51,099 nt of DNA from Burkholderiales bacterium. GTDB lineage: Bacteria; Pseudomonadota; Gammaproteobacteria; Burkholderiales; SHXO01. The notes under the pieces are model-generated. The model ran no database searches, was not told where the DNA came from, and saw only the letters and a list, made by a program, of their open reading frames with translations. The stretch is taken from contig DASPUW010000333.1 of NCBI GenBank assembly GCA_035622675.1, forward strand, positions 1 through 51,099. The letters run 5' to 3'. The position numbers were made by a program, and so were the translations under genes. Shown in pieces: positions 9,649-47,643 of this stretch (positions are counted from its first letter, which is position 1; every line of letters begins with the position of its first letter).

Positions 9649-9730
9649 TCGTGCTCGCGTTGTTTTAGTTGACGTGAGGCGACGGTAAGTACGGCCCGGC
9701 TCGGGCCGGTAGGAATCTTGCTTATTATAA

Positions 9731-9749: not shown

Positions 9750-9753
9750 CCGC

Positions 9754-10230: not shown

Positions 10231-10232
10231 CT

Positions 10233-11351: not shown

Positions 11352-11385
11352 TGTAGCGGCCGTAGCCAAAACAAAGGCGCCGAGC

Positions 11386-12930: not shown

Positions 12931-12969
12931 CGCCTGTAGCATCGAGCCTCGCATCCACCTGGAATTTCG

Positions 12970-13839: not shown

Positions 13840-13943
13840 CGATCGAGCACCGGGTCGTGTGCGGCGCGGGCGTTCCTCGGACGCGAGCGCTTCCTCGAGC
13901 ACAGGGCCAAACCCGGTAGAATCAGTTGTCGGCCGGAGACAGC

Positions 13944-14996: not shown

Positions 14997-15012
14997 GAAT
15001 GCAGGAGGCGGT

Positions 15013-15795: not shown

Positions 15796-15870
15796 CCCGG
15801 TCTCGCGTCACGCTGCGCTCCACCTGACGACGCTCCGACGCAACGAGTCACGAATCACGGCTGGCCCGTT

Positions 15871-19471: not shown

Positions 19472-19476
19472 GGCTT

Positions 19477-19953: not shown

Positions 19954-19963
19954 GCGCGGTTCC

Positions 19964-21001: not shown

Positions 21002-21140
21002 GGTTGACCGCAACGCAGTTTACGCTGTGAGCGTCCCAACCGCGACGACGGGAACGCGCTGCCTGCTGCCGCCCAAGGGATTAAACTAGCTGATCGGCTA
21101 GGGAGGTCTCGGAATGCGATTGCCCTCCGCCTAACTCGGA

Positions 21141-29270: not shown

Positions 29271-29309
29271 GATTCGCGGGCGCCGTCCCTAGCCTCTCGC
29301 TGCCCTTGG

Positions 29310-30383: not shown

Positions 30384-31450
30384 CGGCTTTCGGGCTCTTG
30401 GGCGAGCTGTTCGGAAAGGTACAGCGCGATCGCCTCGACCAGCGCGTCGCGCGGGAACCAGTTGTGGCCGGTGACGAATGTCGCGAGCATCGGCCTCTTC
30501 TCCTCGATCGGCACGGCCACGCCCCAGTGATCGGCGTTGGTGTAGCCGAGAAGTGTGGCGCCGGGAATGACCTGATCGTAGAACAACAGCTGGCCGTCGT
30601 TGCGCGGATCGATCTCGGTCAGGGCCGCGGCGAAGGGGCGCAATGGTCCCGCGACGCTGTCCGTGCGGGTGAACGACACCAGCGAGAAATACCTGGTGCT
30701 CTGCGGGAGGCGATGCTCGGCCAGCCAGTTGAGGCGCAGCGGCCGCCGCAGGCTGTCCACCGCGCCGCCATCTCCCGCGTCGCAGCCGGCTACCGAGACC
30801 CGCCTGAGCGAGCGATCGTACGGAGCGGATGCCGCGTCGGCCAATGCGGAGCCGTTGATGGCTCCGGCAACGCTCACCACCGCTCTGACGCGCTTCGTGA
30901 GCTCGGGATACGCGACCAGAAACTCGAGAATGTCCACCGCCCCTTTCGAATACCCAACCAGGACCAAGCGCTGATCAGCGGCAGCCGCCTTGGACACGAA
31001 CTGTGCGATGTCTTCCGCATTGCTGGTGCTGCTCGAGCGGCCGCTGACGACGAGAATCTCCGCTTCGTAGCCGAGGCTCTGCAGGCGCGGCACAGCGGTC
31101 TCGAAGGGCAGCGCGACAACGCTCGCGCAATCGTTGAACAAGCCCGGCACGAATACGAAGCGAAGGCGTGTATCGCGGGGCGGCAGCGCAACCGGCCGCG
31201 CGGCGCCAGGCGCTTCGTCGCTCAGGCGGTGCAGGAGCTCTTCGCAGGTGCGCTGCTTGGGGTTCGGATTGTCCTGCAGCGTTGCACAGAACAACTCGCG
31301 AAACCGGACACGCCCATCCCGTACCTCGGGCGCATCCAGTACGCCCATGGTCTGCGCCGGGAGATCGAGATCGTACTTGCGCATCGGGCTGGCGGTGCAG
31401 CCCAGCAGGACGACGGATGCAAGAAACACCAGGCTGCGATTGCCAAACAT
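30380..31450 (-). CDS. lipoprotein alpha/beta hydrolase, tandem paralogue
   Basis: Lipobox LLGC, then GYSKG, NDGQ and ADHW. It is colinear with the downstream paralogue along its full length, and the two genes overlap by 4 nt. Confidence 0.78.
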   Translation of the reverse strand: MFGNRSLVFLASVVLLGCTASPMRKYDLDLPAQTMGVLDAPEVRDGRVRFRELFCATLQDNPNPKQRTCEELLHRLSDEAPGAARPVALPPRDTRLRFVFVPGLFNDCASVVALPFETAVPRLQSLGYEAEILVVSGRSSSTSNAEDIAQFVSKAAAADQRLVLVGYSKGAVDILEFLVAYPELTKRVRAVVSVAGAINGSALADAASAPYDRSLRRVSVAGCDAGDGGAVDSLRRPLRLNWLAEHRLPQSTRYFSLVSFTRTDSVAGPLRPFAAALTEIDPRNDGQLLFYDQVIPGATLLGYTNADHWGVAVPIEEKRPMLATFVTGHNWFPRDALVEAIALYLSEQLAQEPESR

Positions 31451-31504
31451 CGGACCGATGCTACCCCGTCCGGCCCTTTCCCGCTTCGCAACCGGCGACG
31501 ATCG

Positions 31505-32998
31505 CTAATTCAATTTCTGCAGGTCGCTCGGCTTCCAGCTCTTGTCGAAGAACGCCTTGGTCGGGCCGTACAGGCGCAGGATGACGAAGAAGCCCTTGTC
31601 GGGAACGGTAGCCAGCCAGTTCTTGCCCTCGCCGGGCGAGTCGGGACCAAAATAGATGTCGATCGAGCCATCCTTGTTCTTGACCGGCTTGTCCATGGCG
31701 TTGATCGACGGGAAGGACTGGCCGTTGTCCAGCCCTGACGCGGTGATGGAATCGTAGACACTCACCGACCAGAACAGCGCGGCGGGAATCCCCTTCGGCA
31801 AACGCAGCTTGTACGACTGTGATCCGGAGAGGAAATTGCCTTCCGCGTCGACGAACGTCGCCGGGTACTTGGCTCCGACGCCGACCATCGTCGCCGCCAT
31901 GCCGGGACTCGCGGAGTAGGCGTTGGTGAAAAAGCCGGTACGCGGATCGATGAAGTTGAAGGTGTCCGCAGTGAATGTCGCGTTGCCCGGAAACACGTTC
32001 AACCAGCGGCGGTCCTTGTACCACAGGCTGTTCGCTACGATGGTCTGCGGCTCGTACGTGATGGCGTGCCCGATGCGGGTGGCGGTGCGCGCGGCCCGGT
32101 CGAGAACATCCCGGGTGTGTGCGTCGGGCTGGAATTTCTTGCCCTTGATGATGCCGAGCGAGGCTGCCATGCCGCGCATCTCCATGTCGGCTGGATCGAC
32201 ATACTCGTGCGCCAGGAAACGCGCGAGCATGTCGAACGCGCTGCCGTCTGCCGGGTAGAGCATGTTGACCGGCACGTTGGACGCGTTCGGGAACTGCATG
32301 GGCTTGGCGCTCTTCCGGTTGCCGAGCGGATAGATGCGGGTCTTCTCCAACAGGTCGACCGGTCCCTCCAGCTGCTTCGGATCCTTGAAGAAGCCGCGCC
32401 AGAACACGAATACGCCGTAAGTGCGGGAGCGCAGGGTGTAGAACTCTCTCGGCACGTCACCGTGGTAATCGGGCGGCAGGATCAGATACTTGCCTCCCTT
32501 GCCGCGATCCGGTCCGGGCAGGCCCACGTCGCCGCACCAGATGCGCCCGGCGATCTTGCGCTCCGAGCAGATCGGGCGCTGAAAGAAGTCGTCCAGGATG
32601 CCCTGCAGACCTGGTGGAACCTCGATGACCATCGGGCCGTCCGCCTTGAGGTCTAGATAGCCCATTGCGTAGATCACGTCCGAATTGGGCGTGGTGATGA
32701 GCGTCTTGGCGTTCAATCGGTCCTTCCAGATCGGCAGGACGTTGTAGCCTTTGCCGAAGACTTTCTCGGAGCCCTCCTTCATCGCGTAGATGTTGAGTGC
32801 GGGCAGTGCCCAGATGTAGGTCTGCACAGCGCGCTGGAACAGGAGCTCATCCTTGAGCGCGGCGATCCCGTCCTTGGAGGGATACCCGTTAGGGAAGGGG
32901 AGCTCCGCCAGCTCGTCGTAGCGCGATGTCTGCGCGTGCGCTGGAAGAATCAACCCTGCGCAAAGGGCAAAAATGGCGAGGCGTCTGCAAGACGGCAT
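31505..32998 (-). CDS. secreted DUF1254/DUF1214 domain protein
   Basis: Signal peptide, then DUF1254-like AVQTYIWALPALN...TPNSDVIYAMGYLDLKADGPMVIEVP, then DUF1214-like ALFWSVSVYD. Confidence 0.82.
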   Translation of the reverse strand: MPSCRRLAIFALCAGLILPAHAQTSRYDELAELPFPNGYPSKDGIAALKDELLFQRAVQTYIWALPALNIYAMKEGSEKVFGKGYNVLPIWKDRLNAKTLITTPNSDVIYAMGYLDLKADGPMVIEVPPGLQGILDDFFQRPICSERKIAGRIWCGDVGLPGPDRGKGGKYLILPPDYHGDVPREFYTLRSRTYGVFVFWRGFFKDPKQLEGPVDLLEKTRIYPLGNRKSAKPMQFPNASNVPVNMLYPADGSAFDMLARFLAHEYVDPADMEMRGMAASLGIIKGKKFQPDAHTRDVLDRAARTATRIGHAITYEPQTIVANSLWYKDRRWLNVFPGNATFTADTFNFIDPRTGFFTNAYSASPGMAATMVGVGAKYPATFVDAEGNFLSGSQSYKLRLPKGIPAALFWSVSVYDSITASGLDNGQSFPSINAMDKPVKNKDGSIDIYFGPDSPGEGKNWLATVPDKGFFVILRLYGPTKAFFDKSWKPSDLQKLN

Positions 32999-33233: not shown

Positions 33234-33380
33234 ATGGATGCAAACCTCACCACGCTGTTACTCGTCGCGCTGATCGCGGTTGCTGCGCCGCTCGTGGCCG
33301 AGTTTCCCATCGGCTTGCGGCTGCCCACCGTCGTCGTGGACGTCGCTTTGGGCGTGGACAAGCGCCGCGCCATTCGCTAG
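33234..33380 (+). pseudogene. N-terminal remnant of a CPA2 cation:proton antiporter gene
   Basis: MDANLTTLLLVALIAVAAPLVAEFPIGLRLPTVVVDVALGV matches the first TM hairpin of CPA2 antiporters. It then diverges (DKRRAIR) and stops after 48 codons. Confidence 0.55.
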
Positions 33381-33414
33381 ATTGATACGGGTTTCGCGAG
33401 AGCGACAGAATCGT

Positions 33415-33451
33415 TGCTGCAGCGCGGAGATCGACGTATCGCGCTGCGGCA
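33415..33451. promoter_or_regulatory. inverted repeat upstream of the PQQ dehydrogenase gene
   Basis: TGCTGCAGCGCG / CGCGCTGCGGCA pairs at 11 of 12 positions with a 13-nt loop. Function unknown; it could be a terminator of the remnant or a regulator site. Confidence 0.3.
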
Positions 33452-33547
33452 GGCGCTTCGTCGAACGCGCGCGCCTGACGGCGGTTGGCTCATCGGCGCC
33501 GGCCACAATATTGTTCGGATGACAACGATACCGGGAGGTAGAGGACT

Positions 33548-35236
33548 ATGAAGAGCATCGATCGAGCGCTCCTGACCGGAGCCGCCCTCGCCGCGATGGC
33601 GATGTCGGGCACGGCGCTGGCGCAGGCCGAATGGCAGCACTACGGCAACGACCAGTCGAACACACGTTTCAGCTCGCTGGACCAGATCAATACCGGCAAC
33701 GTCAAGAACCTGAAGGTCGTCTGGGCCCACTCGCTGGGCACCTCCGACAGTCAGGAATCCTCGCCGCTCATCGTCGACGGCACCATGTACGTGACCAGTT
33801 CCACCGGGCCACGCTACGTTTTCGCCCTCGACGCGAAGACTGGGGAAAAGAAGTGGACCTACCAGCCTGAATTACCGGCGGACTATATGGCGACGGTGTG
33901 CTGCGGCCTGGACAATCGCGGTGTCGCCGTGGCCAACGGCAAGGTGTTCTTCGGGCGCCTCGACGCCAAGCTCGAAGCACTGGACGCGAAGACCGGCAAG
34001 CACCTTTGGACGGCCACCGTTGCAGACTACAAGGCGGGCTACGCCATTACCACCGTGCCGCTGATCGTCAAGGACCTCGTCATCACTGGCATGTCCGGCG
34101 GCGAGTACGGCGTGCGCGGATTCGTGGTCGCCTACAAGCAGTCCACCGGTGAACAGGTGTGGAAGACCTATACCATCCCCGGTCCTGGCGAGCCGGGCAA
34201 CGACAGCTGGAAGGGCGACTCGTGGAAGACTGGCGGCGCCTCCACATGGGGCGTTGGCGCATATGATGCGAAGCGCAATCTGGTGTTCTGGTCCACCAGC
34301 AACGCCGGCCCCTGGGGCGGGCAGACCCGTGGGACTGACTCCGCCGACTATGGCCAGTTCACCAACCTGTGGAGCGCCTCACAGCTGGCCTTCGATGCCG
34401 ACACCGGCAAGATCGCGTGGGGCTATCAGTACACCCCGCACGATGTCTGGGACTACGACGGCATAAACGAGGCCGTGCTGACCGACCTGAACATTGGCGG
34501 CAAGCAGGTTCCCGCGCTGATGCATGCGGACCGCAACGGATTCTTCTACGTGCTCAATCGCGACACCGGCAAGGTGGTGGCTGCGGATCCGTTCGTGACC
34601 GTCAACTGGGCGACCCACGTCGATCTCGAGACCGGCAAGCCGGTCGAAGCGCCTAACAACGAGAAGCGTCCGCAACTCGGCAAATGGGCCCGCAACGTCT
34701 GCCCGAACTTGATCGGCGGCAAGAACTGGTCGCCCATGTCCTACAGCAAGCAGACTGGTCTCGTGTACTTGCCGGCGTTCAATATGTGCATGGACATCGC
34801 GAACCGCGAGGAGGAATACACGCCGGGCAAGTTCTATCTCGCATCCGAGTTCGATCTCGGCAAGGCCGGGGCGACCGGTTCGAACCTGGGCGAGTTCATC
34901 GCCTGGGACCCGGTCGCAAGAAAGAAGGCCTGGTCGATTGAGGAAGAGAACATGTGGGCGAGCGGCGCCATGTCGACGGCAGGCGGGCTGGTGTTCTACG
35001 GCAACATCAACGGCGTGTTCAAGGCAGTGGACGCAAAGACCGGCAAGGTGCTGTGGCAGTTCCGCGTCGGCACCGGGATTACGCAGAGCGCTGTGACCTA
35101 CTCCATCGATGGCAAGCAGTACGTCGCCGTGGTTGCCGGTCGCCTGAAGGGCCCGCCCTCCTTCTTCGGCAAGATCGGCCAGAAGATGATGGAGGCAAGC
35201 CCGGAAGGTGGCATCCTCATGGTGTTCTCGCTCTAA
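33548..35236 (+). CDS. PQQ-dependent alcohol dehydrogenase (methanol/ethanol family), lanthanide-type motif
   Basis: Signal peptide, WQHYGNDQSNTRFS, the vicinal Cys pair TVCCGLDNRG, W-motif propeller blades, and YTPHDVWDYDGINE, which has Asp two residues after the catalytic Asp. Confidence 0.92.
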   Translation: MKSIDRALLTGAALAAMAMSGTALAQAEWQHYGNDQSNTRFSSLDQINTGNVKNLKVVWAHSLGTSDSQESSPLIVDGTMYVTSSTGPRYVFALDAKTGEKKWTYQPELPADYMATVCCGLDNRGVAVANGKVFFGRLDAKLEALDAKTGKHLWTATVADYKAGYAITTVPLIVKDLVITGMSGGEYGVRGFVVAYKQSTGEQVWKTYTIPGPGEPGNDSWKGDSWKTGGASTWGVGAYDAKRNLVFWSTSNAGPWGGQTRGTDSADYGQFTNLWSASQLAFDADTGKIAWGYQYTPHDVWDYDGINEAVLTDLNIGGKQVPALMHADRNGFFYVLNRDTGKVVAADPFVTVNWATHVDLETGKPVEAPNNEKRPQLGKWARNVCPNLIGGKNWSPMSYSKQTGLVYLPAFNMCMDIANREEEYTPGKFYLASEFDLGKAGATGSNLGEFIAWDPVARKKAWSIEEENMWASGAMSTAGGLVFYGNINGVFKAVDAKTGKVLWQFRVGTGITQSAVTYSIDGKQYVAVVAGRLKGPPSFFGKIGQKMMEASPEGGILMVFSL

Positions 35237-35262
35237 CCCGAAGATCGATGTGACGCATTGCT

Positions 35263-35288
35263 GCCGCGGGGTTTTATCCCCCCGCGGC
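35263..35288 (+). promoter_or_regulatory. intra-operon GC hairpin between dehydrogenase and cytochrome genes
   Basis: GCCGCGGGG / CCCCGCGGC is a 9-bp stem with an 8-nt loop and no T-run. It could be a processing or stability element, or a partial terminator. Confidence 0.45.
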
Positions 35289-35359
35289 CGTGCGGTCGAA
35301 ATGAAACCGGTGGACTTGGCACTGCCGTCGCGTCCACCGCGTTTCGCAACCCACGGAAG

Positions 35360-35755
35360 ATGGGAGAACATTTCGTGATTTCCAGGATGGTAGTCTTGAT
35401 TGCCGCCGCATCGGCGGCCGCGACCATCCTCTGCGTTTGCGCCCCCGCCATGGCGGGGGACGCAACCCGTCCGGTGAACCCGTACTCCGGCAACGCCCAG
35501 ATAGCGCAGGAAGGTGGCAGCCTGTTCAACCAATATTGCTCGCATTGCCATGGACCGTGGGCCGAGCAAGGCGAGCGTCCGCGCGACCTGCGGCGGCTGC
35601 GTATCCGTTATGGGGACGACGCCATCTCGATGTTCTACGCCACCGTCAGCACCGGGCGTCCGGACAAAGGCATGCCGGTCTGGAAGGGCGTGCTGAGCGA
35701 CGAGACCCTGTGGAAGATCTTCACCTTCCTCGAAACTGTGCAGACCGAGGACTAG
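35360..35755 (+). CDS. small class I c-type cytochrome (probable electron acceptor of the PQQ dehydrogenase)
   Basis: Signal peptide ending APAMA, haem site CSHCH, and candidate distal Met in KGMPVW. The start is uncertain: ATG 35360, GTG 35375 (preceded by GGGAGA) or ATG 35387. Confidence 0.85.
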   Translation: MGEHFVISRMVVLIAAASAAATILCVCAPAMAGDATRPVNPYSGNAQIAQEGGSLFNQYCSHCHGPWAEQGERPRDLRRLRIRYGDDAISMFYATVSTGRPDKGMPVWKGVLSDETLWKIFTFLETVQTED

Positions 35756-35760
35756 CGGCA

Positions 35761-36795
35761 ATGCTGGCTCGCTGCATGTGGGCGTTGCTGGCAGCGTTCG
35801 CCGCGTGCATGCTCATCGTTCAGGATGTTGCCGCTCACGGCGTCACTCTCGATCTGTATCATCCGCTGTCGGCCGAGTCGGCGTTCCATCGTGCGTTCCT
35901 CGTACCCTGGGCTCGGAAGGTCGCGCAGGAATCGGGCAATCGCATCAATATCCATCTGCATGCGGAATCGGCAGATCCGGTCGCGACCAAGGGACTCTAC
36001 GAACAGGCCGAGGACGGCGACGCCGACCTGGTCTGGGCACCGATCCTGACCTCCGTCGAACACTTCCCCAGGCTCGGTATCGTCGATGCACCTTTCATGG
36101 TGCACACTGCACAGGGAGGGAGCCGCGCGGTATCGGAGTATGTGCGCGTCAACGATCTCCTCGATCGCGAGCTTGCCGGAGTGCGCGTGCTGGCAGTGCA
36201 CGTCGCGGACGGCACGCAGCTCCACTGCAGCGGGTCTGCCGCCACGGCGTCGACCGAAGTAGCCGGAAAGCGCATCGCGGTGGCATCTCCGGTCGACGCT
36301 GCGTTGCTCGCGGCGCTGGGCGCTACGCCCATCCAGGTTCCGGCGGCGCGCGTGACGAGCTCGCTTCGCGATGGGGCCGCGGAAGGCGCCCTGCTCGCCT
36401 GGTCCGAGGCCGGTGGCATCGCGGGCAACCACGTCGAGGTGGGTCCCGACGGCGCCGGTATCACCAGCGCCCTGTTCGTTTTGGCCATGGGCCCGGCCAG
36501 CTATCGCTCGCTGCGCGACGATCTCAAGGCCGTGATCGGGGCGAACAGCGGCAAAGAGACCGCTGCCTGGATCGGGCGCGTGCTCGACGAAGCGGCCGCG
36601 GAGTCGCGCAAGGCGGCGCTCGCACGCGGTGAAACCGTCCGCGCTATGACGCCTGCCGAACGTGAGGAGTGGACGCAGGGGGCGAGCAAAATCAGCGAGG
36701 CGCGCGCGGCTGTACTAACGCGGGCCGGGATCGGCGTTCGTCCGCTGATCGAGAGTGCGCGCGAGCAGCTGCAGACCTTCGACGCGTCGAAGTGA
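35761..36795 (+). CDS. TRAP-type (DctP-family) periplasmic solute-binding protein, orphan
   Basis: Signal peptide. HPLSAESAFHRAFLVPWARKV, DGDADLVWAPILTSVEHFPRLGIVDAPFMV and ALGATPIQVPAARVTSSLRDGAAEGALLAW follow the DctP-family pattern. No DctQ or DctM genes are present in the window. Confidence 0.78.
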   Translation: MLARCMWALLAAFAACMLIVQDVAAHGVTLDLYHPLSAESAFHRAFLVPWARKVAQESGNRINIHLHAESADPVATKGLYEQAEDGDADLVWAPILTSVEHFPRLGIVDAPFMVHTAQGGSRAVSEYVRVNDLLDRELAGVRVLAVHVADGTQLHCSGSAATASTEVAGKRIAVASPVDAALLAALGATPIQVPAARVTSSLRDGAAEGALLAWSEAGGIAGNHVEVGPDGAGITSALFVLAMGPASYRSLRDDLKAVIGANSGKETAAWIGRVLDEAAAESRKAALARGETVRAMTPAEREEWTQGASKISEARAAVLTRAGIGVRPLIESAREQLQTFDASK

Positions 36796-36817
36796 AACGA
36801 CCGAGCACCTACGCGTG

Positions 36818-38221
36818 CTAACGCCTCGGCGGGTTCGCTCGCCACAGAGCGGGGCTGAGGGCGGGTGCGAGGGCTTCCAGATACAGCGATGGTGCCATAT
36901 CGTAGGCGTAAGCATTCAGGCGTCCGAGCAGGTCGCTGACGCGGTCCGGATAGCTGGCGGCCTTGTTATCGGCTTCCTCCGGATCGTTTGCAATGTCGAA
37001 CAATTCGACCTTGGCAGGCAGCGCCGCGTGTACGATCAGCTTCCACTCCCCGACGCGGATCGCGCCGCGAAAATCCTCGACGTCGAGCAGCATATCCTTG
37101 CGCGTCGAGAGCTTGCGCTCCGTGATCACCGGCCACACGTCCACGCCGTCCAGCGGATGAGACGCGTCGGGCGCCGCACCGGCCAGGCGCAGCAGCGTCG
37201 CGTGCAGGTCGGTGATGTGCAGGGTATCCGTGACTATCGTCTTCGGAGCGATCCTTCCGCGCCACGATACGATCGACGGTATCCGCATCCCACCCTCATA
37301 CAGGCTGCCATGGCCCTCCCGCAAGCTGCCATTGTCCGCCGCCGTATTGCGCACGTCCCGGTCGCCGGTGGGATAGCGCGTCGGCACCGCCCCGCCGTTG
37401 TCGCTGTGGAAGACAATGAGTGTATGGTGGAGCAGCTTGCGGCGCTCGAGTGCGGTCACGATCTCGCCGATCGCCGAGTCGAGTGCTGTTACAGCCGCTG
37501 CGTAGTTGCGGCGACTGTCACTCGAGATATCGGAATAGCTCGCGCGCAGCGCAGGGGGGACATCCTGGTACCGTGCTGGTGCGTTGAATGAGACCATCAG
37601 GAACAACGGACTGGGAGGCTCATGCCGCTCGATGATGCGCACTGCTTCGGTGGCGAACAGCTGGGTGACGTATCCGGTATCGTTCACTGCCTTGTCGCCG
37701 CGACGCCAGTCAGTCTTGGTGGCCTTGTGAATCGAGGATTCCGACGTGCCGGCGAGCGAGCCGTAGAACATGTCGAAGCCGCGCCGCGTGGGCCAGTACT
37801 CCGGTTTCGCGTGACCCAGCAGCCAGTCACCGACGAATGCCGTGCGATAGCCTTCGTCCTTGAGCGCTTGCGCGAGCGTCCGTTCCTCGGCTGGCAGCCC
37901 GTAGGCGTTGGCGCGGGTGATCGACAGGGTCTGCAGCCCATAACGCATCGGATAGCGTCCGGTCAGCAGCGCAGCGCGTGTCTGGCTCGAGTATGGCTGC
38001 ACATAGAGCGCGTTCAGGATGGCCCCGCCCGCTGCCAGCGCATCCAGCGTTGGCGTGCGCAGTGTGCCGCCGCGAAAGCCCAAGTCGTGCGCGCCGAGAT
38101 CGGCTGCCAACAGGTAGACGATGTTGGGTCGGTCGGTTGCGAACGCTCCCGACGCCAGCAGCACAAGGCCGAGCGCAGCGACGCGCAGAGTCGACAAGGC
38201 CGAATTGACCTCAGGTGCCAT
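36818..38221 (-). CDS. sulfatase-family (alkaline phosphatase superfamily) exported protein, atypical active site
   Basis: Signal peptide, RPNIVYLLAADLGAHDLG, PYSSQTRAALLTGRYP and VFHSDNGG. The canonical C/S-x-P-x-R motif reads S-S-Q-T-R, and DDxG reads ADLG. Confidence 0.85.
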   Translation of the reverse strand: MAPEVNSALSTLRVAALGLVLLASGAFATDRPNIVYLLAADLGAHDLGFRGGTLRTPTLDALAAGGAILNALYVQPYSSQTRAALLTGRYPMRYGLQTLSITRANAYGLPAEERTLAQALKDEGYRTAFVGDWLLGHAKPEYWPTRRGFDMFYGSLAGTSESSIHKATKTDWRRGDKAVNDTGYVTQLFATEAVRIIERHEPPSPLFLMVSFNAPARYQDVPPALRASYSDISSDSRRNYAAAVTALDSAIGEIVTALERRKLLHHTLIVFHSDNGGAVPTRYPTGDRDVRNTAADNGSLREGHGSLYEGGMRIPSIVSWRGRIAPKTIVTDTLHITDLHATLLRLAGAAPDASHPLDGVDVWPVITERKLSTRKDMLLDVEDFRGAIRVGEWKLIVHAALPAKVELFDIANDPEEADNKAASYPDRVSDLLGRLNAYAYDMAPSLYLEALAPALSPALWRANPPRR

Positions 38222-38325
38222 TTCTCAATTTCTCCTCGGGCAGCACACGAGGCCCCGATCATACGGTGTGGCGCAGCTTCCCACCACGGGCATTCGGCCG
38301 GGCGAGGCCGCATCTGGACTTAACC

Positions 38326-39825
38326 ATGATGGCGCCTCGCGACGCGCTGCTCGAGTGGCTCGCCTCCGCCGCTGCGCGCATCAATCGGCAGCGATGGCTG
38401 CGGGACGGATCGTGGGCGGCAGCAGGACTGGGCGTGCTCTGGGCTGGCCACCTGGCGATCGTGCGGTTCGTACGGCCACCGACCGTGGCAACTGCTCTGC
38501 TGCCTCTGATGCTGCTGTTTGCGATCGCGACGCTCATTGTGCTGGTCGCGCGGCGGGTGAGGCGGCCGGGCCTCGCAGAAGCGGCCGACGCTGCCGACGC
38601 ACGTGCCAAGTTGCACGACGGACTCATCAGCGCGCACTGCTTTACTCAGGACGATGAGGACGCTTTCAAGGCTCTGCACGTGCGGCGTTCCGCGGCAGCC
38701 GCAGCTGGCATCGACCCGCGCCAGCTCTTCCCGCTCGTGGTGCCGCGCGGAGCTGTGGCCATACTCGCCGCGGCACTGCTCGCCGCAGCTTCAGTAACGA
38801 TGCTGCCGCACGCCGCAGACTCACCGGTAGAGCCGCTTCAGGCAGCCGTGCCTGGTTCGTCGGACGCGGTACGTGACGCAAGTCATCGGCGTGCCGACGG
38901 AACGGAGGAAAACACCCTGGCCGGAAGCCGTATCGGCCCCGGCCTCTGGAAGCAGATCGATGCGCTGGCTGCCTCGTTCGCCGGGTCGACCGCGGGGCAG
39001 TCGCTGATGGAAGCGATCGCGGCACGCGATGCGCGGGCGGCGGCGGAAGCACTTCGACCCCTCAAACAGGATGCGTCGGCGGAAGCCGGCGGACAGCACA
39101 TGCCGCAAACGGTAGACGAGCAGATGAACAATGTGCTCGCACAAGGCATCCTCGAGCGGCTGTCGGAACTACTCAAAGCGGAGGACTCGGCAGCGGCGCA
39201 AGCGCTCGCAATGGCCAACGAGCGTCCCACTGCGCAACTCGAAAATGAGCTGCGCGCCGAGCAGGAGGACACGCAACGTGCGGCACCACGTCAGCAGAGC
39301 GAAGGCGAAGACGCAGTGAACACACTCCTGCGCGCACTGTCACGGTCCAGCACCGCCGGCCGGGACCGCGTGCGCGGCGAGGCCGACAGCATGGACGGCG
39401 CGGGCCGTGCAAGTGTGGGTGGCGGCGCGATGGGACGGCGCGTTGGCATGAGCAGCGCGGGCGCGGGCGAAGGCGACCAGCCCGGCGCCAACGTCACCCC
39501 ACAGACCGACAGCGATTCCATCTTCGGAAGAAAAACCGAGCGACTGGCAGTCCAGTTGCGCAACGTCAAAGTGCCCGAGGCCACTCTCGACGCGGCCGAG
39601 GAAGAAGATCGGAGCGGAACGGAGGAAGCCAGCTATGCAGCGACGCGCGCGCAAGCCGCGCACACAGCCGCTCAGGGCGTGATCTTGGGTTCGTCGTCCG
39701 TAGCCGAGTCCGTGCTCGACGGTCAGCAATCGCCTCTCGAGTACCGTGAAGCTGTCAAACGCTACACGATGACTCGCCATCGTCGCGAGGCGGAGCAACG
39801 CGCAGTAACGGGTAGCGGGCAATAG
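38326..39825 (+). CDS. membrane protein of Bat/VWA-type cluster (Ala/Glu-rich, C-terminal PLEYREAVKRY motif)
   Basis: ATG at 38326. Two or three N-terminal TM segments are followed by a long low-complexity acidic region and a C-terminal SPLEYREAVKRYTM. I recall a similar P-x-EYR-x-x-V-x-x-Y tail in proteins of MoxR/VWA operons, but this is unverified. Confidence 0.65.
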   Translation: MMAPRDALLEWLASAAARINRQRWLRDGSWAAAGLGVLWAGHLAIVRFVRPPTVATALLPLMLLFAIATLIVLVARRVRRPGLAEAADAADARAKLHDGLISAHCFTQDDEDAFKALHVRRSAAAAAGIDPRQLFPLVVPRGAVAILAAALLAAASVTMLPHAADSPVEPLQAAVPGSSDAVRDASHRRADGTEENTLAGSRIGPGLWKQIDALAASFAGSTAGQSLMEAIAARDARAAAEALRPLKQDASAEAGGQHMPQTVDEQMNNVLAQGILERLSELLKAEDSAAAQALAMANERPTAQLENELRAEQEDTQRAAPRQQSEGEDAVNTLLRALSRSSTAGRDRVRGEADSMDGAGRASVGGGAMGRRVGMSSAGAGEGDQPGANVTPQTDSDSIFGRKTERLAVQLRNVKVPEATLDAAEEEDRSGTEEASYAATRAQAAHTAAQGVILGSSSVAESVLDGQQSPLEYREAVKRYTMTRHRREAEQRAVTGSGQ

Positions 39826-39838
39826 GGGCCGGCCGGCG

Positions 39839-41605
39839 GTGATCTCCTTGCTGCAAGCATCGCCGACATTCGGGCTGCTGCTGGTCGGCCTGGTTGTCGC
39901 CGCCATCGTCGCAATCCATCTTTTGAAGCCGCGACGGGTCAGGCGTGTTGTTGCTTCGACCCTGATCTGGCAGAGGGCCACGCGCCGCATCGGCAAGCGC
40001 GCTGACAGATGGCGCTGGTGGCTCGCGTTGGCATTGTCGCTCGCCATCGGGATCGGGCTCACGCTGGCGCTGGTGCGTCCCGAGCTGCGCGGGTTCGGTG
40101 CAGGCGCAAGGCGAGTCGTTGTGGTGCTCGACAATGGACCGACCATGGCGGTGCGCACGCGCGATGGACAGACACGCTGGGCGCACGCGGTCGCAGAAGC
40201 GCGCAGCGTGATTGCGCGAGCGGCCGGCCCCGTGATGGTCATGGACAGCATGGGCTTGACCGGCTCGAGCGGCTTCCTCGGGCGCGATGAAGCCTTGGCT
40301 ACGCTCGGCCGTATGACAGTGGTGCCGGTGGCGGAAGGAGTCCCGCCGATGCTCCCGCCGCCACCAGGAACCGAAGTGCATTTCATCGGCGACGGCGTCG
40401 CGCCTGTAGATCCACCGCCTGAGGCGATCGTGCATCCCGTGTTCGAGCCCGCCGACAACGTCGCGGTGCTCCGGCTGGTGACGCGCGCGCTGCCTGCGGA
40501 TCCGCTCCGAGTGGACGCGCTGGTTCAGGTGTTCAACGCGTCGCCCGTCGAAAAGACCGTGCAGTTGACGCTGCGTGGGGGAGAACGATTCGCCGTATCG
40601 CAGACGCTGCGCATGACTGCCGGCGAGCGAATCGATGCGACGTTCGATGTGTCCGGCTTCGAGGGCGGCGTGCTGGCCGCCGCCGCTCACGCTCGGGGCG
40701 ACGCCTTCGCCGCGGACGACATCGCCTACACCGTCGTGCAGCCGCACGGCCGCAGGCGCGTGCAGTTGGTCACGCGTGGCAATGCGCCGCTTGCGGATGC
40801 GCTCGCGGCGCTACCGGCCATCCGGCTCGAAGTCATAGCGCCGGAACGCTACCGACACGGTTCCCGCGCCGATGCATACGTGTTCGATGGGTTCGCGCCG
40901 GACCGGGCGCCGGATGCGGGCTCACTGTTGTTTCATCCCGCGCACGTCGACTGGCTGCCGCCGGGGCGGCCCGCCAACGGACCGGTGGTCGTGGATGATT
41001 GGGATCGCGCGAGCCCGATCGCGGGCGCCGTGCCATGGAATGCACTCAGCATTGGGCGTAGCGAGTTGTGGAACGTATCAGGTGCCGAAGCTGCCGTCCT
41101 TGTTCGCGCAAGCGCTGAAGGCTTAGTGGTATCGGGTCGCGCGAGTGCGCCGTGGATCGCGGTCGGGTTCCTCAGCGACCAAAGCGACCTGCCGTTGCAG
41201 CCCGGCTTCGCCGTGTTGCTCGGCAACGCGCTCGCGCAACTCACCGTAGCCACACCGGCGCGCACCGAGCCTCTGGGCGTCGTGCGCGTGGCACTGCCCA
41301 ACGGTGAGGTGCGGGATGGCCGGGGGCATCTTGTCGAGAGCCGCACCGCTGGCGGCGTGACGATCTTCGACGCGCAACGACCCGACATCTACACCGTGCG
41401 GTCGGGTAACGCGCACGTCTTGATAGCCGCTGGCCTGATGGACTCACGCCTGGCTGACATCAACGCCAGCCGCTTCGCCCACACACCGGTACCGGCCACT
41501 GCACTGCCCGGCGTGCCGCTCGAACGCTGGGCCCTCGCTGTCCTGGCCTGCATGGCGCTGCTCGTGTTCGACTGGGCCGCCTACGTGCGCCGGGTCACGC
41601 GCTAG
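39839..41605 (+). CDS. BatA-like membrane protein (aerotolerance-regulator N-terminal double-TM domain)
   Basis: GTG start. MISLLQASPTFGLLLVGLVVAAIVAIHLLKPRR...STLIW has the BatA_N pattern. A C-terminal TM segment is present (WALAVLACMALLVFDW). Confidence 0.72.
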   Translation: MISLLQASPTFGLLLVGLVVAAIVAIHLLKPRRVRRVVASTLIWQRATRRIGKRADRWRWWLALALSLAIGIGLTLALVRPELRGFGAGARRVVVVLDNGPTMAVRTRDGQTRWAHAVAEARSVIARAAGPVMVMDSMGLTGSSGFLGRDEALATLGRMTVVPVAEGVPPMLPPPPGTEVHFIGDGVAPVDPPPEAIVHPVFEPADNVAVLRLVTRALPADPLRVDALVQVFNASPVEKTVQLTLRGGERFAVSQTLRMTAGERIDATFDVSGFEGGVLAAAAHARGDAFAADDIAYTVVQPHGRRRVQLVTRGNAPLADALAALPAIRLEVIAPERYRHGSRADAYVFDGFAPDRAPDAGSLLFHPAHVDWLPPGRPANGPVVVDDWDRASPIAGAVPWNALSIGRSELWNVSGAEAAVLVRASAEGLVVSGRASAPWIAVGFLSDQSDLPLQPGFAVLLGNALAQLTVATPARTEPLGVVRVALPNGEVRDGRGHLVESRTAGGVTIFDAQRPDIYTVRSGNAHVLIAAGLMDSRLADINASRFAHTPVPATALPGVPLERWALAVLACMALLVFDWAAYVRRVTR

Positions 41606-41614
41606 AGACGCAAC

Positions 41615-44344
41615 ATGGCAATGCTGTATCCACAGGCTCTTTGGCTGCTGCTCGCGTTGCCCTTGGTCTGGCTCCTTGGATTCGCGGCGCGGCGCGATCA
41701 TGCGCCCCCGCGTCTGCTTGGCAGCGTGGTGTTGCGCAGCACTACGCTGACCTTGCTGATCCTGGCGATCGCTCAGCCGCGCCTCTTCGTGCGCGATGAG
41801 TCGGTGTCCGTGGTCTACGCGCTCGACATCTCGCGCAGCGTCGCGCCCGCCTCGGTAAGCGGTGCGCTGGAATGGATCCGAACAGCGAATGCGCGTTTCC
41901 AGCCGTCGGAAGCGCACTATCTCGTATTCGCGGACCGAGCGCGATATGTGGCATCGGTCGACGATGTGCCCGCGGTCGACGTATCGTTCACCGAGCGCTC
42001 CGATCGGACCCAGACTGTCGCGCAAGGTGCAACCGACATCGAGCAGGCCCTGCGCGCTGCGGTGCCCGCCTTCGGGCCAGGCGGTGAACGGCGGCTGGTG
42101 CTGTTCACCGACGGGGTGCAGACGCGCGGCGATTTCCTGCGTGAGCTGCCCAGGCTCGATGCCGCGAAGGTGCGCGTGTTCGCGGTGCCGATGCAAGTAG
42201 CCGCAGAGCACGACGCATGGGTGGATGCAATCAGGGTGCCCGAAGGTGTGCGCCGCGACGAACCCATCACCGTTCAAGTGACGGTGCAGGCGCAGGCCGC
42301 GATGCCGGCACGGGTGCAACTAGCGACCGGCGGACGGAGCCTCGGCGCGCGATCAGTGAATCTGCGGTTCGGGATCAACGATATTGGTTTCGATGTCGCG
42401 CTGCCGGAAGCGGGTGCAACGACGCTTGTCGCGACGGTCCGCGCCGAAGGTGACACCTACGCCGGGAACGACACGCTGGCAGAAACAGTTTGGGTGGGCC
42501 CTCATCCGCGCGTGCTATACGTCGATGGCGTTCCCGAAAGCGCGCGCTACCTCGCGGAGGCCTTGCGTGCGCACCATCTGGACGTGACGGTCGCAAGCAC
42601 GGAAGCTCTGGCCACGGGTGAAGTGTCCGTGGACGCGTCCGACGTCGTTTTCCTCAGCGATGTGTTCGTGCAGGGCATCGATGCGCGAACAGTCGCGAAG
42701 CTCGAAGCCTTCGTACGCGATCGGGGTGGCGGATTGATCTTCGCGGCCGGTGAAAGCACGTATGGCGAGAAAGGTCTGGCTGGCAGCAGCGTGGAAAACA
42801 TGTTGCCGGTGCGCTTCGAGGGTAAGCGCAAGCGGCGCGATCTCGACCTGGTCCTGCTGATCGACCGTTCGCACAGCATGCGTGGCGGCAAGCTGGAGCG
42901 GGCGAAAACCGCCTCGTTGTCCACGCTCGATATGCTGGAGCCGCGCCACCGCCTCGCCGTGGTGGCCTTCGATGCGCGGCCATACGAGGTGGTGCCGCTT
43001 GTACCCGTCGGCAACAAGCGCCGAGCCGAGGATCTGATCTCGAGCATGACGGCGCGTGGACAGACCAGCATCTACCCGGCTCTGGTGGAGGCGCAGCGGC
43101 TGCTTGCTGCCTCGTCTGCCACTACCAAGCATGTCATCCTGCTATCCGATGGTGTGACCGTGCAGCCGCCCGCATCGGGTGGGGCGCCCACGGCGGCGCA
43201 GATCCAGGCAGCGATCCGGAAAGGCCGAGAGGAGGAGATGCGCCAGCAAGGCATCCCGGTTCCGCCGCCCGAAGCGACGGAGGTGTTGCCCGAACCCGGG
43301 GCCATCGAGACAGTCGTCGAGGAGCTAGCCCAAGCGAAAGTGACGGTGTCTACGGTGGCCATCGGCGACAAGCCGAACGTCGGGCTGATGCGCGACATCG
43401 CCGCAATCGGCAAGGGACGCAGCTACGTGGCGCACGACGATGCGGAGATCCCGAGCCTGTTCGTCAGCGAAACGCGGAGGTTGCTCGGCGAGTCGCTCGT
43501 GGAGGAAGCCTTCCGCCCGGTCGTTGCGCATCGCACTGCAGTCCTAGCCGGAGTCGATTTCGACCGCGGGCCGCCACTGCAGGGGATGAGTGTTGCGCGC
43601 GCAAAGACGTTCGCCGACGTGCTGCTGCGCGGCCCCAAGGAGCAGCCACTGCTCGTCACCACGCACTACGGTCTGGGTAAGACCGTCGCTTTTCTTTCCG
43701 ATGTGAAGAACCGTTGGTCGAGCGCATGGATCGGATGGGAAGGCTACGGGCGCTTCTGGGCACAAGTTGTACGCGATTGCGTGTCGCGCGCGGACGAGCG
43801 GAATGTAGTGCTGCGCGTGACGCGGTCAAAGGGGGAAGCGCTCATCGAGCTGCGCGCGCTGGCATCCGATCGCAGCTATCGGAGCGGATTGTCTCCGTCG
43901 GTGCACATCACGGCGCCTAGCGGTACTCAGTCGACGCTCGTCATGCAGCAGGTCGCGCCGGGCGTCTACTCGGCGCGAGCCCCAATCGAAGCCGGGCAGA
44001 CGCAGCCCTATCGCTTCGAGCTCACCGAAGGCGGTGGTGTGACGCGGGCCGACCTCCGCGAAGCCGGCATCCGCTCCCTCTCCTACTCCTGGTCCGACGA
44101 GTTGCGCGGGTTACCGGTGGACGCGGCGGCGCTGCGCCTGCTGAGCGATCGAACTGGCGGCGCATATGCAGCCCGGGCCGAGGAGATCTTCGCGCTGAAG
44201 GGCGATGGTGGACGTGTTCCGCGCCCGTTGTGGCCGATTCTGCTGGCGATCGCCCTCGGCGCGTTCCTGCTGGACATCTTGTTGCGGCGTCTGCGCTGGG
44301 CTCAGCGAAGTCGGCGAACGTCTGCTTTCTCGCCGCTTGGGTGA
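41615..44344 (+). CDS. large membrane-anchored protein with two VWA domains and GATase1-like domains
   Basis: The N-terminus is BatA_N-like (LYPQALWLLLALPLVWLL). MIDAS motifs are VYALDISRS and VLLIDRSHSMRGGKL...GQTSIY...LLSDG. The protein ends in a C-terminal TM segment. Confidence 0.85.
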   Translation: MAMLYPQALWLLLALPLVWLLGFAARRDHAPPRLLGSVVLRSTTLTLLILAIAQPRLFVRDESVSVVYALDISRSVAPASVSGALEWIRTANARFQPSEAHYLVFADRARYVASVDDVPAVDVSFTERSDRTQTVAQGATDIEQALRAAVPAFGPGGERRLVLFTDGVQTRGDFLRELPRLDAAKVRVFAVPMQVAAEHDAWVDAIRVPEGVRRDEPITVQVTVQAQAAMPARVQLATGGRSLGARSVNLRFGINDIGFDVALPEAGATTLVATVRAEGDTYAGNDTLAETVWVGPHPRVLYVDGVPESARYLAEALRAHHLDVTVASTEALATGEVSVDASDVVFLSDVFVQGIDARTVAKLEAFVRDRGGGLIFAAGESTYGEKGLAGSSVENMLPVRFEGKRKRRDLDLVLLIDRSHSMRGGKLERAKTASLSTLDMLEPRHRLAVVAFDARPYEVVPLVPVGNKRRAEDLISSMTARGQTSIYPALVEAQRLLAASSATTKHVILLSDGVTVQPPASGGAPTAAQIQAAIRKGREEEMRQQGIPVPPPEATEVLPEPGAIETVVEELAQAKVTVSTVAIGDKPNVGLMRDIAAIGKGRSYVAHDDAEIPSLFVSETRRLLGESLVEEAFRPVVAHRTAVLAGVDFDRGPPLQGMSVARAKTFADVLLRGPKEQPLLVTTHYGLGKTVAFLSDVKNRWSSAWIGWEGYGRFWAQVVRDCVSRADERNVVLRVTRSKGEALIELRALASDRSYRSGLSPSVHITAPSGTQSTLVMQQVAPGVYSARAPIEAGQTQPYRFELTEGGGVTRADLREAGIRSLSYSWSDELRGLPVDAAALRLLSDRTGGAYAARAEEIFALKGDGGRVPRPLWPILLAIALGAFLLDILLRRLRWAQRSRRTSAFSPLG

Positions 44345-44373
44345 CGAGCCGACGGCGATGCGCATATCCGGCG

Positions 44374-44633
44374 ATGGTGGTGCGCCTCGCCAGCACCGGC
44401 GAGCGTGGGGAAGTGCTGCGTCAGAAGCTGGAGGCGATCGGCTATGGCTTCCTCGTTCCGTTCTTCTTCGTCGTCAGCGGGATCAAGTTCGACCTCGGTT
44501 CGCTGCTCGAGAGTACGCGCTGGTGGGCGCAGGCATGGTGTCGGTGCTCCTGTTCCCGTTGTTCGCGCTGCGCGAGCGCACCGGCGCTGTTCGCCGGGGA
44601 GCGGGTCGCGGCGACGGCGAAGACTCTCTGTAG
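44374..44633 (+). pseudogene. C-terminal remnants of a CPA2 cation:proton antiporter gene (frameshifted, internally deleted)
   Basis: Frame 1 (44374..44517) reads MVVRLASTGERGEVLRQKLEAIGYGFLVPFFFVVSGIKFDLGSLLES. A different frame (44517..44633) reads ALVGAGMVSVLLFPLFALRERTG... and then stops. Both are typical CPA2 late TM segments, but roughly 100 residues expected between them are missing. Confidence 0.65.
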
Positions 44634-45316: not shown

Positions 45317-46123
45317 CTATGCGCTGCGCATGCGCAGGTGCTCTTCCGGCACGGGATATCCGGCTGCGCCGAACGCGCTCGCGATCGCCCGGTTGGTGTC
45401 GAAGTAAACCTGCCAGTAGTAGTCCGTGTGCGTGTAGGGACGCACGGCCAGAACGGGACCGCGCGCATTGAAATCGACGATCTCGACGTCGGGCGCCGGC
45501 TCGGTCCGAACGTTCGGGATTTTCGCCAGCGCCTCCTTCAGCCGCTTGATCGCATCGCCGACGTCCACGGCATGGGCAAGCTGCGCGGTTCGCTCGACGC
45601 GCCGATAGGCGCCGGTCGAGTAGTTCTGGATGGTGTCGGAGAAGATCTTATTGTTTCCCACGAACGTACTCACGTTGTCGGGCGTCAGAATCGTTGTCGC
45701 GAACAGGCCGATTTCCTTTACCGTGCCTTCGGTGCCTCCCGCCTTCACGTAATCTCCCACCTTGAAGGGGCGCAGCACGACGAGGAATGCCCCGGCGGCG
45801 AAATTGGCGAGCAGGCCGGCCCAGGCTGCGCCGATTGCGACCCCCATGCCTGCGATCAACGCCGCGAACGACGTCGTCTCCACGCCGAAGTAGCCGAGGA
45901 TGGCTACGACGAGAACGATATTGAGCGCGACGTTGACGATGTTGCCGATGTAGCGCTGCAAAGTCGGATCGATCTCCTGCCGCGTTAGCGTGATGCCGAT
46001 CAAGCGCAGCGCTATGCCGATCAGGTAGCGGCCGACGAGCCACGCGACGATCGCACTGAGAACTTTCAGGCCAAAGGTGGTGAGCGCAGTGCTCGCGACT
46101 TCGCCCATGTGCTGCCAGTCCAT
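45317..46123 (-). CDS. small-conductance mechanosensitive channel (MscS family)
   Basis: The start MDWQHMG at 46123 is preceded by GGGAGG. The pore-helix region is TTSFAALIAGMGVAIGAAWAGLLANFAAGAFLVVLRPFKVGDYV, followed by a beta domain. Confidence 0.9.
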   Translation of the reverse strand: MDWQHMGEVASTALTTFGLKVLSAIVAWLVGRYLIGIALRLIGITLTRQEIDPTLQRYIGNIVNVALNIVLVVAILGYFGVETTSFAALIAGMGVAIGAAWAGLLANFAAGAFLVVLRPFKVGDYVKAGGTEGTVKEIGLFATTILTPDNVSTFVGNNKIFSDTIQNYSTGAYRRVERTAQLAHAVDVGDAIKRLKEALAKIPNVRTEPAPDVEIVDFNARGPVLAVRPYTHTDYYWQVYFDTNRAIASAFGAAGYPVPEEHLRMRSA

Positions 46124-46188
46124 GATTGCCTCCCTTTGCAACGTTGACTGAAGAAGAACCTGCGGCGGCCGGCCCGGCCGATCCGCCA

Positions 46189-47643
46189 CTACTCGAGTCT
46201 GACCACGGGCGGCGGCGTCCACGCGCCGCCGAGGATCGGTGCCTGCGGCCAGTACGCGCGCAGGTACAGCGAGAAGTCGCTCTCCGGTGCCGGCAGCCAG
46301 TTGGACCGCTTGTCCTCTGCGGGCGCTTCGGCCTGCACGTAAAGCGTGAGCGAGCCGTCCTCGTTGTACTTGAGGTCCTTGTTCTTGGTGCCCAGCGAAT
46401 AGCGCTTGAGCGCATTGGGCGAGAAGAAGTGATGCTCGTTGTACAGGGTGAGCGACCAGAAACCCTTCACCGGCGGAAGCTGGCCGCGCGCGAAAGTAAC
46501 GGTGTAGCGCTCGTATCCGGTCAGGCGCTCTCCGCTCGAGTCGAGATCCTGGTAGAAGTACTTGGTCTCGGCGTTCTTGTTGACGAAGATATTGGATTTG
46601 GCCACCGCGGCGCGCGTGAAGTAGTCCACGCCAAACGCGGCACCGTTATTGATCGTGCTCCAGTTGTCGGGCAACGGCACACCGTAGTTGTTGAACTGAA
46701 AGAGCGGTGCAACGAGCTCCTCGTCGGCGTCGATCGCGACCTGCTTGAGGGCCTCCTTCAGCTTCGGATTCTTCGCGGCGGCGGCGAGCACGGTGCGCAG
46801 ATTGGCGTACAGCGCTTCTTCGCCGGGCAGTGGCGGCACTTCGTCCAGCACCTGCGGCAGCACGTCGAAGAACTTCTCCGGCACTACCCATCTGGTTTCC
46901 TCTTCGCTCTGGCTAGCGGCCGGGAACTTGGGCAGCTGCGCCCAGTCCCGGGTCTGCATTCGGCCGGTTTGCTTGCTCAGCGGATAGATTGCGATCTGGT
47001 TGATCACGGCCTGCACTGCCTGTTTGTCTGTCGGGTCGTCGCTCACGAACACGCGCGGAATCATGTAGGCGAGATTGGTCGGTGAGCGGAACACTTTGAC
47101 GATGCCTTTGGGCTTCGCACCCTTCCAGGCGGGGCCGACCACCAGATACAAACCGGGTTTGCTGCCGTACATCGCGCCGAGACCGGCGAAGCCGTCGGTG
47201 CGCTGATCGCCGAGCTGATAGACCCAGAAGCGGCCTTTGAAATCGGGCACCTGAATCACCATCGGTTCCCGGTCCAGCGCGAGCATGCCGAAGCCATACA
47301 CGACATCCTGGTTGGGGCAGGCCACCAGGCGCTCCTGAGGCTCGATGTAGTCGCGCAGCATCGCGAGCTGGTTGAGCGGTGCGACCGGAACGATCCCGCC
47401 CATGAGGCCGGGCTCCGGCACGTCCTTGAAAGTCGCGCTGCGATTGTGCAGGTTCACCATCGGCCAGCCCCACAGATAGGCGATGCGGCCAATCGAGCGC
47501 ACGTACTCCTCGGTTATCCGCCCGCTTGAGGGCACCGCGAGCGGAGCATTGGACGGTGCGCTGGGCGGCGCCGCGACACACACTGCGACAGCGCTCAACA
47601 GCGCAGCCGCAGCCGCGTATCGGATCCGGGTGACGGGTAGCAT
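46189..47643 (-). CDS. secreted DUF1254/DUF1214 domain protein (second copy, distant paralogue)
   Basis: Signal peptide, then IAYLWGWPMVNL...CPNQDVVYGFGMLALDREPMVIQVPDFKGRFWVYQLGD and GFWSLTLYN. Confidence 0.85.
   Translation of the reverse strand: MLPVTRIRYAAAAALLSAVAVCVAAPPSAPSNAPLAVPSSGRITEEYVRSIGRIAYLWGWPMVNLHNRSATFKDVPEPGLMGGIVPVAPLNQLAMLRDYIEPQERLVACPNQDVVYGFGMLALDREPMVIQVPDFKGRFWVYQLGDQRTDGFAGLGAMYGSKPGLYLVVGPAWKGAKPKGIVKVFRSPTNLAYMIPRVFVSDDPTDKQAVQAVINQIAIYPLSKQTGRMQTRDWAQLPKFPAASQSEEETRWVVPEKFFDVLPQVLDEVPPLPGEEALYANLRTVLAAAAKNPKLKEALKQVAIDADEELVAPLFQFNNYGVPLPDNWSTINNGAAFGVDYFTRAAVAKSNIFVNKNAETKYFYQDLDSSGERLTGYERYTVTFARGQLPPVKGFWSLTLYNEHHFFSPNALKRYSLGTKNKDLKYNEDGSLTLYVQAEAPAEDKRSNWLPAPESDFSLYLRAYWPQAPILGGAWTPPPVVRLE

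Follow-up and report, generated by a model that had tools for sequence, protein, structure and literature searches.

How a block of seven genes of about 11 kb came to lie between pieces of an antiporter gene is the question raised by contig DASPUW010000333.1 of a Burkholderiales bacterium (GCA_035622675.1), which was analysed over its whole length of 51,099 nucleotides (hereafter the window). We favour, with a probability of roughly 80%, the view that the locus is an insertion-deletion scar, in which a seven-gene fragment was captured by illegitimate recombination together with a deletion of target DNA. The interrupted gene belongs to the CPA2 cation:proton antiporters. Its three remnants and the inserted block are arranged as follows, with related contigs and proteins given as L and P numbers, respectively, and open reading frame abbreviated as ORF.

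33234..33353, plus strand: antiporter remnant 1, the first ~41 codons of the CPA2 gene; nucleotide homology to L006/L007/L027/L028 stops at 33352/33353
33354..44368, plus strand: inserted block, ~11.0 kb in place of 620 bp (codons 42-249) of the antiporter
44369..44516, plus strand: antiporter remnant 2, residues 250-297; ORF 44374-44517 = MVVRLASTGERGEVLRQKLEAIGYGFLVPFFFVVSGIKFDLGSLLES
44517..44633, plus strand: antiporter remnant 3, residues 365-404 and the stop codon, in a shifted frame; reads ALVGAGMVSVLLFPLFALRERTGAVRRGAGRGDGEDSL

The first-pass annotation, made from the sequence alone, had proposed that the fragments bracketing the block are remnants of one antiporter, and this is what comparison with relatives shows. 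We built a composite ortholog of 404 amino acids (aa) from contigs of partial or broken relatives found with the joined pieces as query, and this composite covers model positions 13-373 of 375 of Pfam PF00999 (Na_H_Exchanger; E = 3.9e-45). Remnant 1 (33234..33356) aligns with residues 1-41 of the composite (31/41 identical), remnant 2 (44374..44517) with residues 250-297 (43/48) and remnant 3 (44517..44633, in the other frame) with residues 365-404 (30/38). Taken alone, remnant 2 matches PF00999 at positions 244-281 of 375 (E = 9e-6; 25.2 bits, the cut-off being 26.2 bits) as well as TIGR00932 (CPA2; E = 2e-4), and the joined remnants reach 26.9 bits with PF00999. Remnant 1 by itself, too short for a family match alone, has no Pfam match; its DNA is 78-83% identical to the 5′ end of intact orthologs (E ~1e-22 to 1e-33). 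Furthermore, the N- and C-terminal remnants match the same proteins (e.g., P0151 and the 408-aa protein of L027) at N- and C-terminal coordinates. The three remnants are a single, colinear CPA2 antiporter gene of ~404-408 aa.

An uninterrupted ORF over the transmembrane domain is not present in the window, where codons 42-249 and 298-364 are gone and the frame is shifted. The ORF at 33234-33380 (48 aa) starts with MDANLTTLLLVALIAVAAPLVAEFPIGLRLPTVVVDVALGV, turns into the insert-derived DKRRAIR and stops at 33380. The window antiporter is a pseudogene, with 129 of its ~404 codons left in three pieces and two frames. A loss of residues ~45-215 had been noted at first pass; the loss stands and its extent does not, since the replaced part is residues 42-249 and a separate deletion of residues 298-364, with a frameshift, comes in addition. 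Intact orthologs of the CPA2 family (Kef-type, membrane-domain-only, PF00999), 403-413 aa long, are 76-90% identical to the remnants; they are full genes, whereas the window copy is a pseudogene. Annotators should join the three small ORFs under a single pseudogene label.

Among related soil bacteria, the antiporter is found at the same site and the block is not. The gene order common to them (77-85% nucleotide identity) is prolyl oligopeptidase, DUF1254/DUF1214 (minus), antiporter (plus), DUF308/HdeD (minus), second DUF1254/DUF1214 (minus), Metallophos (minus) and DUF6607 (minus), and five contigs carry the gene order of the window: L007 (a metagenome-assembled genome (MAG) of an uncultured beta proteobacterium, 291 kb), L027 (ENA, 136 kb) and L028-L030 (JGI). 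The genes on the two sides of the antiporter in the window are as follows.

31505..32998, minus strand: DUF1254/DUF1214 protein of 497 aa, left flank (PF06863, PF06742); 81-85% nucleotide identity in L004/L006/L007/L027/L028
44638..45204, minus strand: DUF308/HdeD-like membrane protein, right flank (PF03729), convergent with the antiporter in all relatives

The first-pass annotation had inferred that the block was acquired by insertion or replacement into the antiporter gene, and was ready to drop this if no lineage had an intact antiporter at the syntenic site. Relatives do hold the antiporter between DUF1254/DUF1214 and hdeD without the block, and in L027 it is a 408-aa ORF, uninterrupted. 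L028-L030, likewise without the block, have a 7-nt deletion near codon 10, and the gene is called from an internal GTG (384 aa). In L007, where the block is also missing, the antiporter is colinear over its whole length and has four frameshifts. We considered and rejected gene decay as the meaning of these frameshifts, all L007 genes being frameshifted at a similar rate; on this contig (CAVVDJ010000003.1) nearly every gene is affected, with about one frameshift per 0.4-0.7 kb (e.g., an extra T in a T-run). These are probably long-read homopolymer errors, and ORF intactness on L007 is not trustworthy. In L004/L005 and L006 the antiporter has decayed and the block is likewise not there. Together, the block is not at the antiporter site in at least six related lineages. 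A first protein search gave only short products, as if the antiporter were a pseudogene in every relative, an idea that we rejected once the composite, used as query, returned many intact orthologs (403-413 aa, 80-92% identity) named Kef-type K+ transport membrane component by JGI.

The antiporter carries lesions of different kinds across the relatives: one frameshift each in L002 and L003, at differing sites; a 5′ deletion and internal deletions in L004/L005; a deletion of residues ~91-285 in L006; and an internal deletion in P0007. Judged from these sequences, a gene that can be spared seems to have been lost repeatedly and in parallel. The antiporter is dispensable in this clade and, because its lesions in relatives are independent, the cost of the insertion may have been small.

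Both breakpoints can be read to the base from alignment with L027, in which position 10134 corresponds to window 33352 on the left and position 10755 to window 44369 on the right. At the left junction the target reads ...GCTTTGGG(C/T)ATCGTCGT(G/A)GGCCC, the window ...GCTTTGGGC|GTGGACAAGCGCC and the donor-like copies of the block ...CACCGGGTC|GTGGACAAGCGCAG. At the right junction, window …CATATCCGGCGATGGTGGTGCGCC meets target …GCAGCGGGGATGGTGGTGCGCC, with an overlap as small as on the left. In the three-way comparison of target, window and donor-like sequence, microhomology amounts to GGG-C / CGTGG on the left and CGG-GATGG on the right (1-7 nt in common). The junctions have homology too short for RecA, no site-specific cores and short microhomology at most. 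The 48-aa ORF that spans the left junction recurs exactly on six contigs of several sources and, as a one-substitution variant, on two further contigs, and the right junction, block, remnant and hdeD are all carried by L001, an independent ENA contig with 99.6% nucleotide identity to the window; therefore, the junctions are not assembly artefacts.

A second lesion lies at window ~44517, where ~200 bp (residues 298-364) have been lost, the frame is shifted and remnant 2 is joined to remnant 3. This deletion is an independent event. A GCGCTG repeat adjoins it and in relatives is found at both ends of the lost stretch, so that the loss looks like a typical slippage-type deletion.

Elsewhere, the block is found in other contexts. 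In L017-L020 (pyrroloquinoline quinone (PQQ) dehydrogenase 93-97% identical in aa and 87-90% in nt) it lies downstream of GGDEF-EAL, cNMP-binding, amidohydrolase and RraA-like genes, and homology with the window starts right at the left junction of the window (33350-33354), within the 300-bp RraA-PQQ intergenic region of these contigs. In L021 (87% aa; 6679-16202) the cluster comes directly after guaB-guaA, with at least seven genes in order, and in L025 (GCA_016125475.1, a Betaproteobacteria MAG, 82% aa; 10001-21044) it sits between an MFS transporter and a HAD hydrolase. L011/L012/L013 (87-92% nt) have three different right flanks, and homology stops each time at the stop codon of the block's last gene, which encodes a VWA protein (~window 44301-44325). 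L022-L024 have only the dehydrogenase and the cytochrome in common with the block. In a distance tree of the sulfatase region, the window copy is sister to (L011,(L017,L020)), with L021 and L025 outside. The block is accessory because it is not at the site in at least six related lineages and stands in other contexts elsewhere, which agrees with its first description as accessory cargo. The seven-gene order, kept in unrelated contexts down to 82% aa identity of the dehydrogenase, suggests that the units may work together. As a side observation, a non-coding stretch of ~300 bp with lower GC follows the VWA stop in both L012 (2200-2500) and L013 (640-940), after which the two contigs run into different genes (one has a P-loop protein, the other a different ORF); in those lineages this region looks like a hypervariable slot by the block.

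An ~11-kb, seven-gene block between the fragments had also been described at first pass, and scans of the products confirm the seven genes, which are listed here after the promoter-like sites that precede them.

33355..33411, plus strand: two promoter-like sites (TGGACA-17-TAGATT; TTGATA-18-CAGAAT), the first bases of the insert; 2 found as against 0.2 expected
33548..35236, plus strand: PQQ-dependent alcohol/methanol dehydrogenase, XoxF-like (TIGR03075, 640 bits; WDYDG motif)
35375..35755, plus strand: c-type cytochrome, PedF/c550-like (PF13442; TIGR04494 below its cut-off; gene call from L001)
35761..36795, plus strand: DctP-family (TRAP-type, i.e., tripartite ATP-independent periplasmic) solute-binding protein (PF03480, E = 1.7e-16; NF037995)
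36818..38221, minus strand: sulfatase of 467 aa (PF00884, E = 2.7e-46; PF16347)
38326..39825, plus strand: 499-aa protein with no family match in family scans of the product
39839..41605, plus strand: 588-aa protein with a weak BatA-like N-terminus (PF07584, E = 2.4e-4, below cut-off)
41615..44344, plus strand: 909-aa VWA and GATase1-like protein, the block's last gene (PF00092, PF13519, PF07090)

The left junction sits 1 bp before the TGGACA-17-TAGATT site, a putative promoter that is conserved in L017-L020 upstream of their PQQ dehydrogenase. The best PDB match of the dehydrogenase is 4MAE XoxF (E = 2.9e-130), with its WDYDG aligned with the WDYDG of 4MAE. An extra Asp two residues past the catalytic Asp (DYD) is diagnostic of the lanthanide-dependent XoxF type, and the cargo dehydrogenase, in which a methanol/ethanol-family PQQ propeller is combined with DYD, is predicted to be of this type. 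In xoxF-xoxG-xoxJ clusters, a lanthanide-dependent methanol/alcohol dehydrogenase is encoded with its cytochrome c and a periplasmic binding protein. The block resembles these clusters in having a DYD PQQ dehydrogenase, then a c-type cytochrome, then a periplasmic binding protein; in contrast, its third gene is of the DctP family, XoxJ being of a different binding-protein family, and the block is joined with a sulfatase and a BatA/VWA module. Product scans found no TRAP membrane subunits in the block or near the DctP gene. An ORF at 35778-36632, without a Pfam match and in the wrong frame, was discarded in favour of the real DctP gene at 35761-36795.

None of the usual signatures of mobility accompanies the block. 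Pfam and NCBIfam scans found no recombinase (integrase or transposase) among the seven products or in both flanks, a scan of the 51-kb window found no tRNA or tmRNA, an Rfam scan gave no match, and a repeat search at both junctions found no direct or inverted repeats pairing the block ends, all of which upholds the earlier statement that no integrase, transposase, tRNA or convincing direct repeats are visible. There is no target-site duplication, and the target instead shows the 620-bp deletion. No close plasmid relative of the VWA protein that would point to a plasmid origin was found, and neither the antiporter nor its flanks resemble the donor-like flank of L017 (to the left of position 9803). 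We also considered whether the 9-mer GGGTCGTGG, which L017-L020 have at their left end and L012 has in its right flank, could be an att-like core, and rejected this, as the 9-mer is missing from the window and L013 and occurs sporadically inside the block. The block is like classical genomic islands and integrative elements in being an accessory cluster that is variably present in differing contexts; it differs from them in lacking an integrase, a tRNA, att repeats and, it seems, a clear compositional anomaly, and in that the target was destroyed with a 620-bp deletion.

The neighbourhood is variable at other points as well. Two paralogous DUF1254/DUF1214 genes (31505-32998 and 46189-47643, both on the minus strand) bracket antiporter-hdeD in the window and in all relatives seen; at ~24% aa identity, they are too diverged to be recombination substrates. 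A second variable slot (29271-31514) extends from the prolyl oligopeptidase gene to the left DUF1254/DUF1214 gene; in the window it holds two ~356-aa ORFs without a Pfam match, in L027 an MFS transporter and a sulfatase fragment, in L028 a 97-aa ORF and in L007 ~400 bp only. By hdeD, a gene for an MscS-type mechanosensitive channel (45317-46222) is present in the window, L001 and L028-L030 and not in L007/L004, and L027 has a 151-aa ORF at this position instead, a third presence/absence polymorphism of the neighbourhood. Further left, at 26341-26661, a 54-bp (18-codon) unit is repeated in tandem (5.9 copies, 82% matches) within ORFs without a Pfam match, and relatives align to it in several registers.

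These observations can be arranged into a history of the locus. The ancestral order would have been DUF1254/DUF1214 (minus), CPA2 antiporter (plus) and hdeD (minus). A linear piece of DNA, reaching from just upstream of the promoter-like region of the cluster to just past its last stop codon, would then have been joined into the antiporter at both ends by non-homologous (illegitimate) recombination, while the target was resected with the loss of 620 bp (codons 42-249). The source was likely a locus of the RraA-adjacent type, as in L017-L020, whether in the genome of the window or in that of a close relative. The inactivated antiporter would then have decayed further, its 3′ remnant losing ~200 bp by a slippage-type deletion and acquiring the frameshift. 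There is no doubt about the polarity: relatives keep 620 bp that the window lacks, and therefore the block was inserted here and not lost elsewhere. The direction, from the RraA context to the antiporter, is the probable one; the donor could have been the same genome or another cell. The mechanism was called unclear at first pass; it can now be described more closely as a non-homologous joining that deleted 620 bp of target. Presumably the fragment was captured at a break, either by end-joining or by a microhomology-mediated route.

Illegitimate recombination is a common explanation for variable segments that bear no mobile-element signature, and it is well established as a major origin of them; such segments or genomic islets, of the short-homology or end-joining type, have been surveyed in Escherichia coli, Staphylococcus aureus and Streptococcus pyogenes with an emphasis on small segments (PMC2884548). 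The block shares with the islets of that survey the presence/absence polymorphism, the lack of a mobile-element signature, the few bases at the junctions and the deletion of resident DNA (PMC2884548). It differs in the large size of the insert (11 kb, seven genes), which forms a whole cluster from promoter to stop, and in that the mechanism is deduced here from the junctions. A related route, also with entry of foreign DNA, a microhomology junction and loss of recipient DNA, is homology-facilitated illegitimate recombination, reportedly described in natural transformation by de Vries and Wackernagel in 2002, Prudhomme and colleagues in 2002 and Meier and Wackernagel in 2003. This process needs one homologous anchor arm, whereas both window junctions are non-homologous; because anchor homology is found on neither side, it appears less likely than capture without an anchor.

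Several observations weigh against a simple capture. The microhomology of 1-7 nt is ambiguous as to the joining mechanism. At the right end of the block, ~25-65 bp (~44301/44345-44368) have no counterpart in the antiporter or in the known 3′ ends of the block (L011-L013), and the right junction could conceal another event or an element since lost. In four contexts the block ends on the right at the VWA stop codon. Random breakage predicts less regularity than this, and the pattern could be due to a variable slot beyond the stop or to selection that keeps operons whole. Furthermore, the window copy is sister to the clade with the RraA context and not nested within it, and the donor context is suggested by parsimony. 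Composition is of little help: GC content is flat along the window (0.62-0.69), and the tetranucleotide correlation of the block (r = 0.88) is lower than the 0.92-0.95 of equal-sized segments to its left, with the 44-51 kb region outside the block equally atypical. The checks called for at first pass all turned out in favour of its interpretation, the one of composition weakly and in a way that is not block-specific, and we rejected composition as proof of foreign origin.

Part of this evidence would be expected if the block were a discrete mobile unit, mobilised in trans or with its recombinase gene since lost, and the antiporter were just one place where it landed. The cluster begins and ends with the same genes in at least four unrelated contexts, the homology of close copies stops within ~30 bp of the VWA stop in four contexts, and 25-65 orphan bp lie at the right junction. 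We nevertheless consider such a unit unlikely, as there are no terminal repeats, target duplication, tRNA or recombinase, the position of the left boundary within the RraA-PQQ intergenic region of L017-L020 is arbitrary, L021 and L025 have no upstream end motif in common with the window, the candidate 9-mer GGGTCGTGG is sporadic, and the removal of 620 bp of target is unlike site-specific or transpositional insertion. A bolder form of the same idea, in which the cluster is a self-contained transferable module, from promoter to VWA stop, that relocates among unrelated sites in soil Betaproteobacteria without an element-encoded recombinase or repeats, strikes us as very improbable; if true, it would represent a new class of cargo-only mobile DNA, with the antiporter scar as one caught landing. 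More unlikely than a discrete mobile unit, if less so than such a module, is a history in two steps, whereby a conventional element (a composite of insertion sequences (IS) or an integrative island) brought the block and a later deletion took the mobility genes along with the central part of the antiporter. Deletions were evidently active at the locus, as the loss of 620 bp of target and the further, independent deletion in the remnant indicate, the right junction has bases without assignment, and other variable slots (29271-31514; the MscS gene) lie nearby. Against this, codon 41 is joined directly, with no foreign bases, to sequence that is contiguous in L017-L020, the short intergenic spaces hold no IS fragment or integrase pseudogene in any frame, and more events are required than for a single capture. 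Finally, the window is probably a metagenomic contig and its relatives are known from assemblies only, which could raise the suspicion of a metagenome misassembly, or of an ancestral block lost in relatives. Both are effectively refuted, the former by the eight contigs of several sources with the left-junction ORF and the right junction in the independent L001, and the latter because relatives have 620 bp of antiporter sequence that could not have come back through loss of the block.

Capture of a seven-gene fragment by illegitimate recombination, with deletion of target DNA, is an ordinary and expected kind of scar in comparative genomics, and it opens no new question. The locus provides a well-resolved natural example of an accessory metabolic cluster entering the chromosome without mobile-element machinery, in which the two breakpoints, the missing target DNA, the unoccupied site and copies resembling a donor can all be seen. 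It identifies the cluster of XoxF-like dehydrogenase, sulfatase and VWA genes as accessory DNA that relocates, and the antiporter as a gene that this clade can do without.

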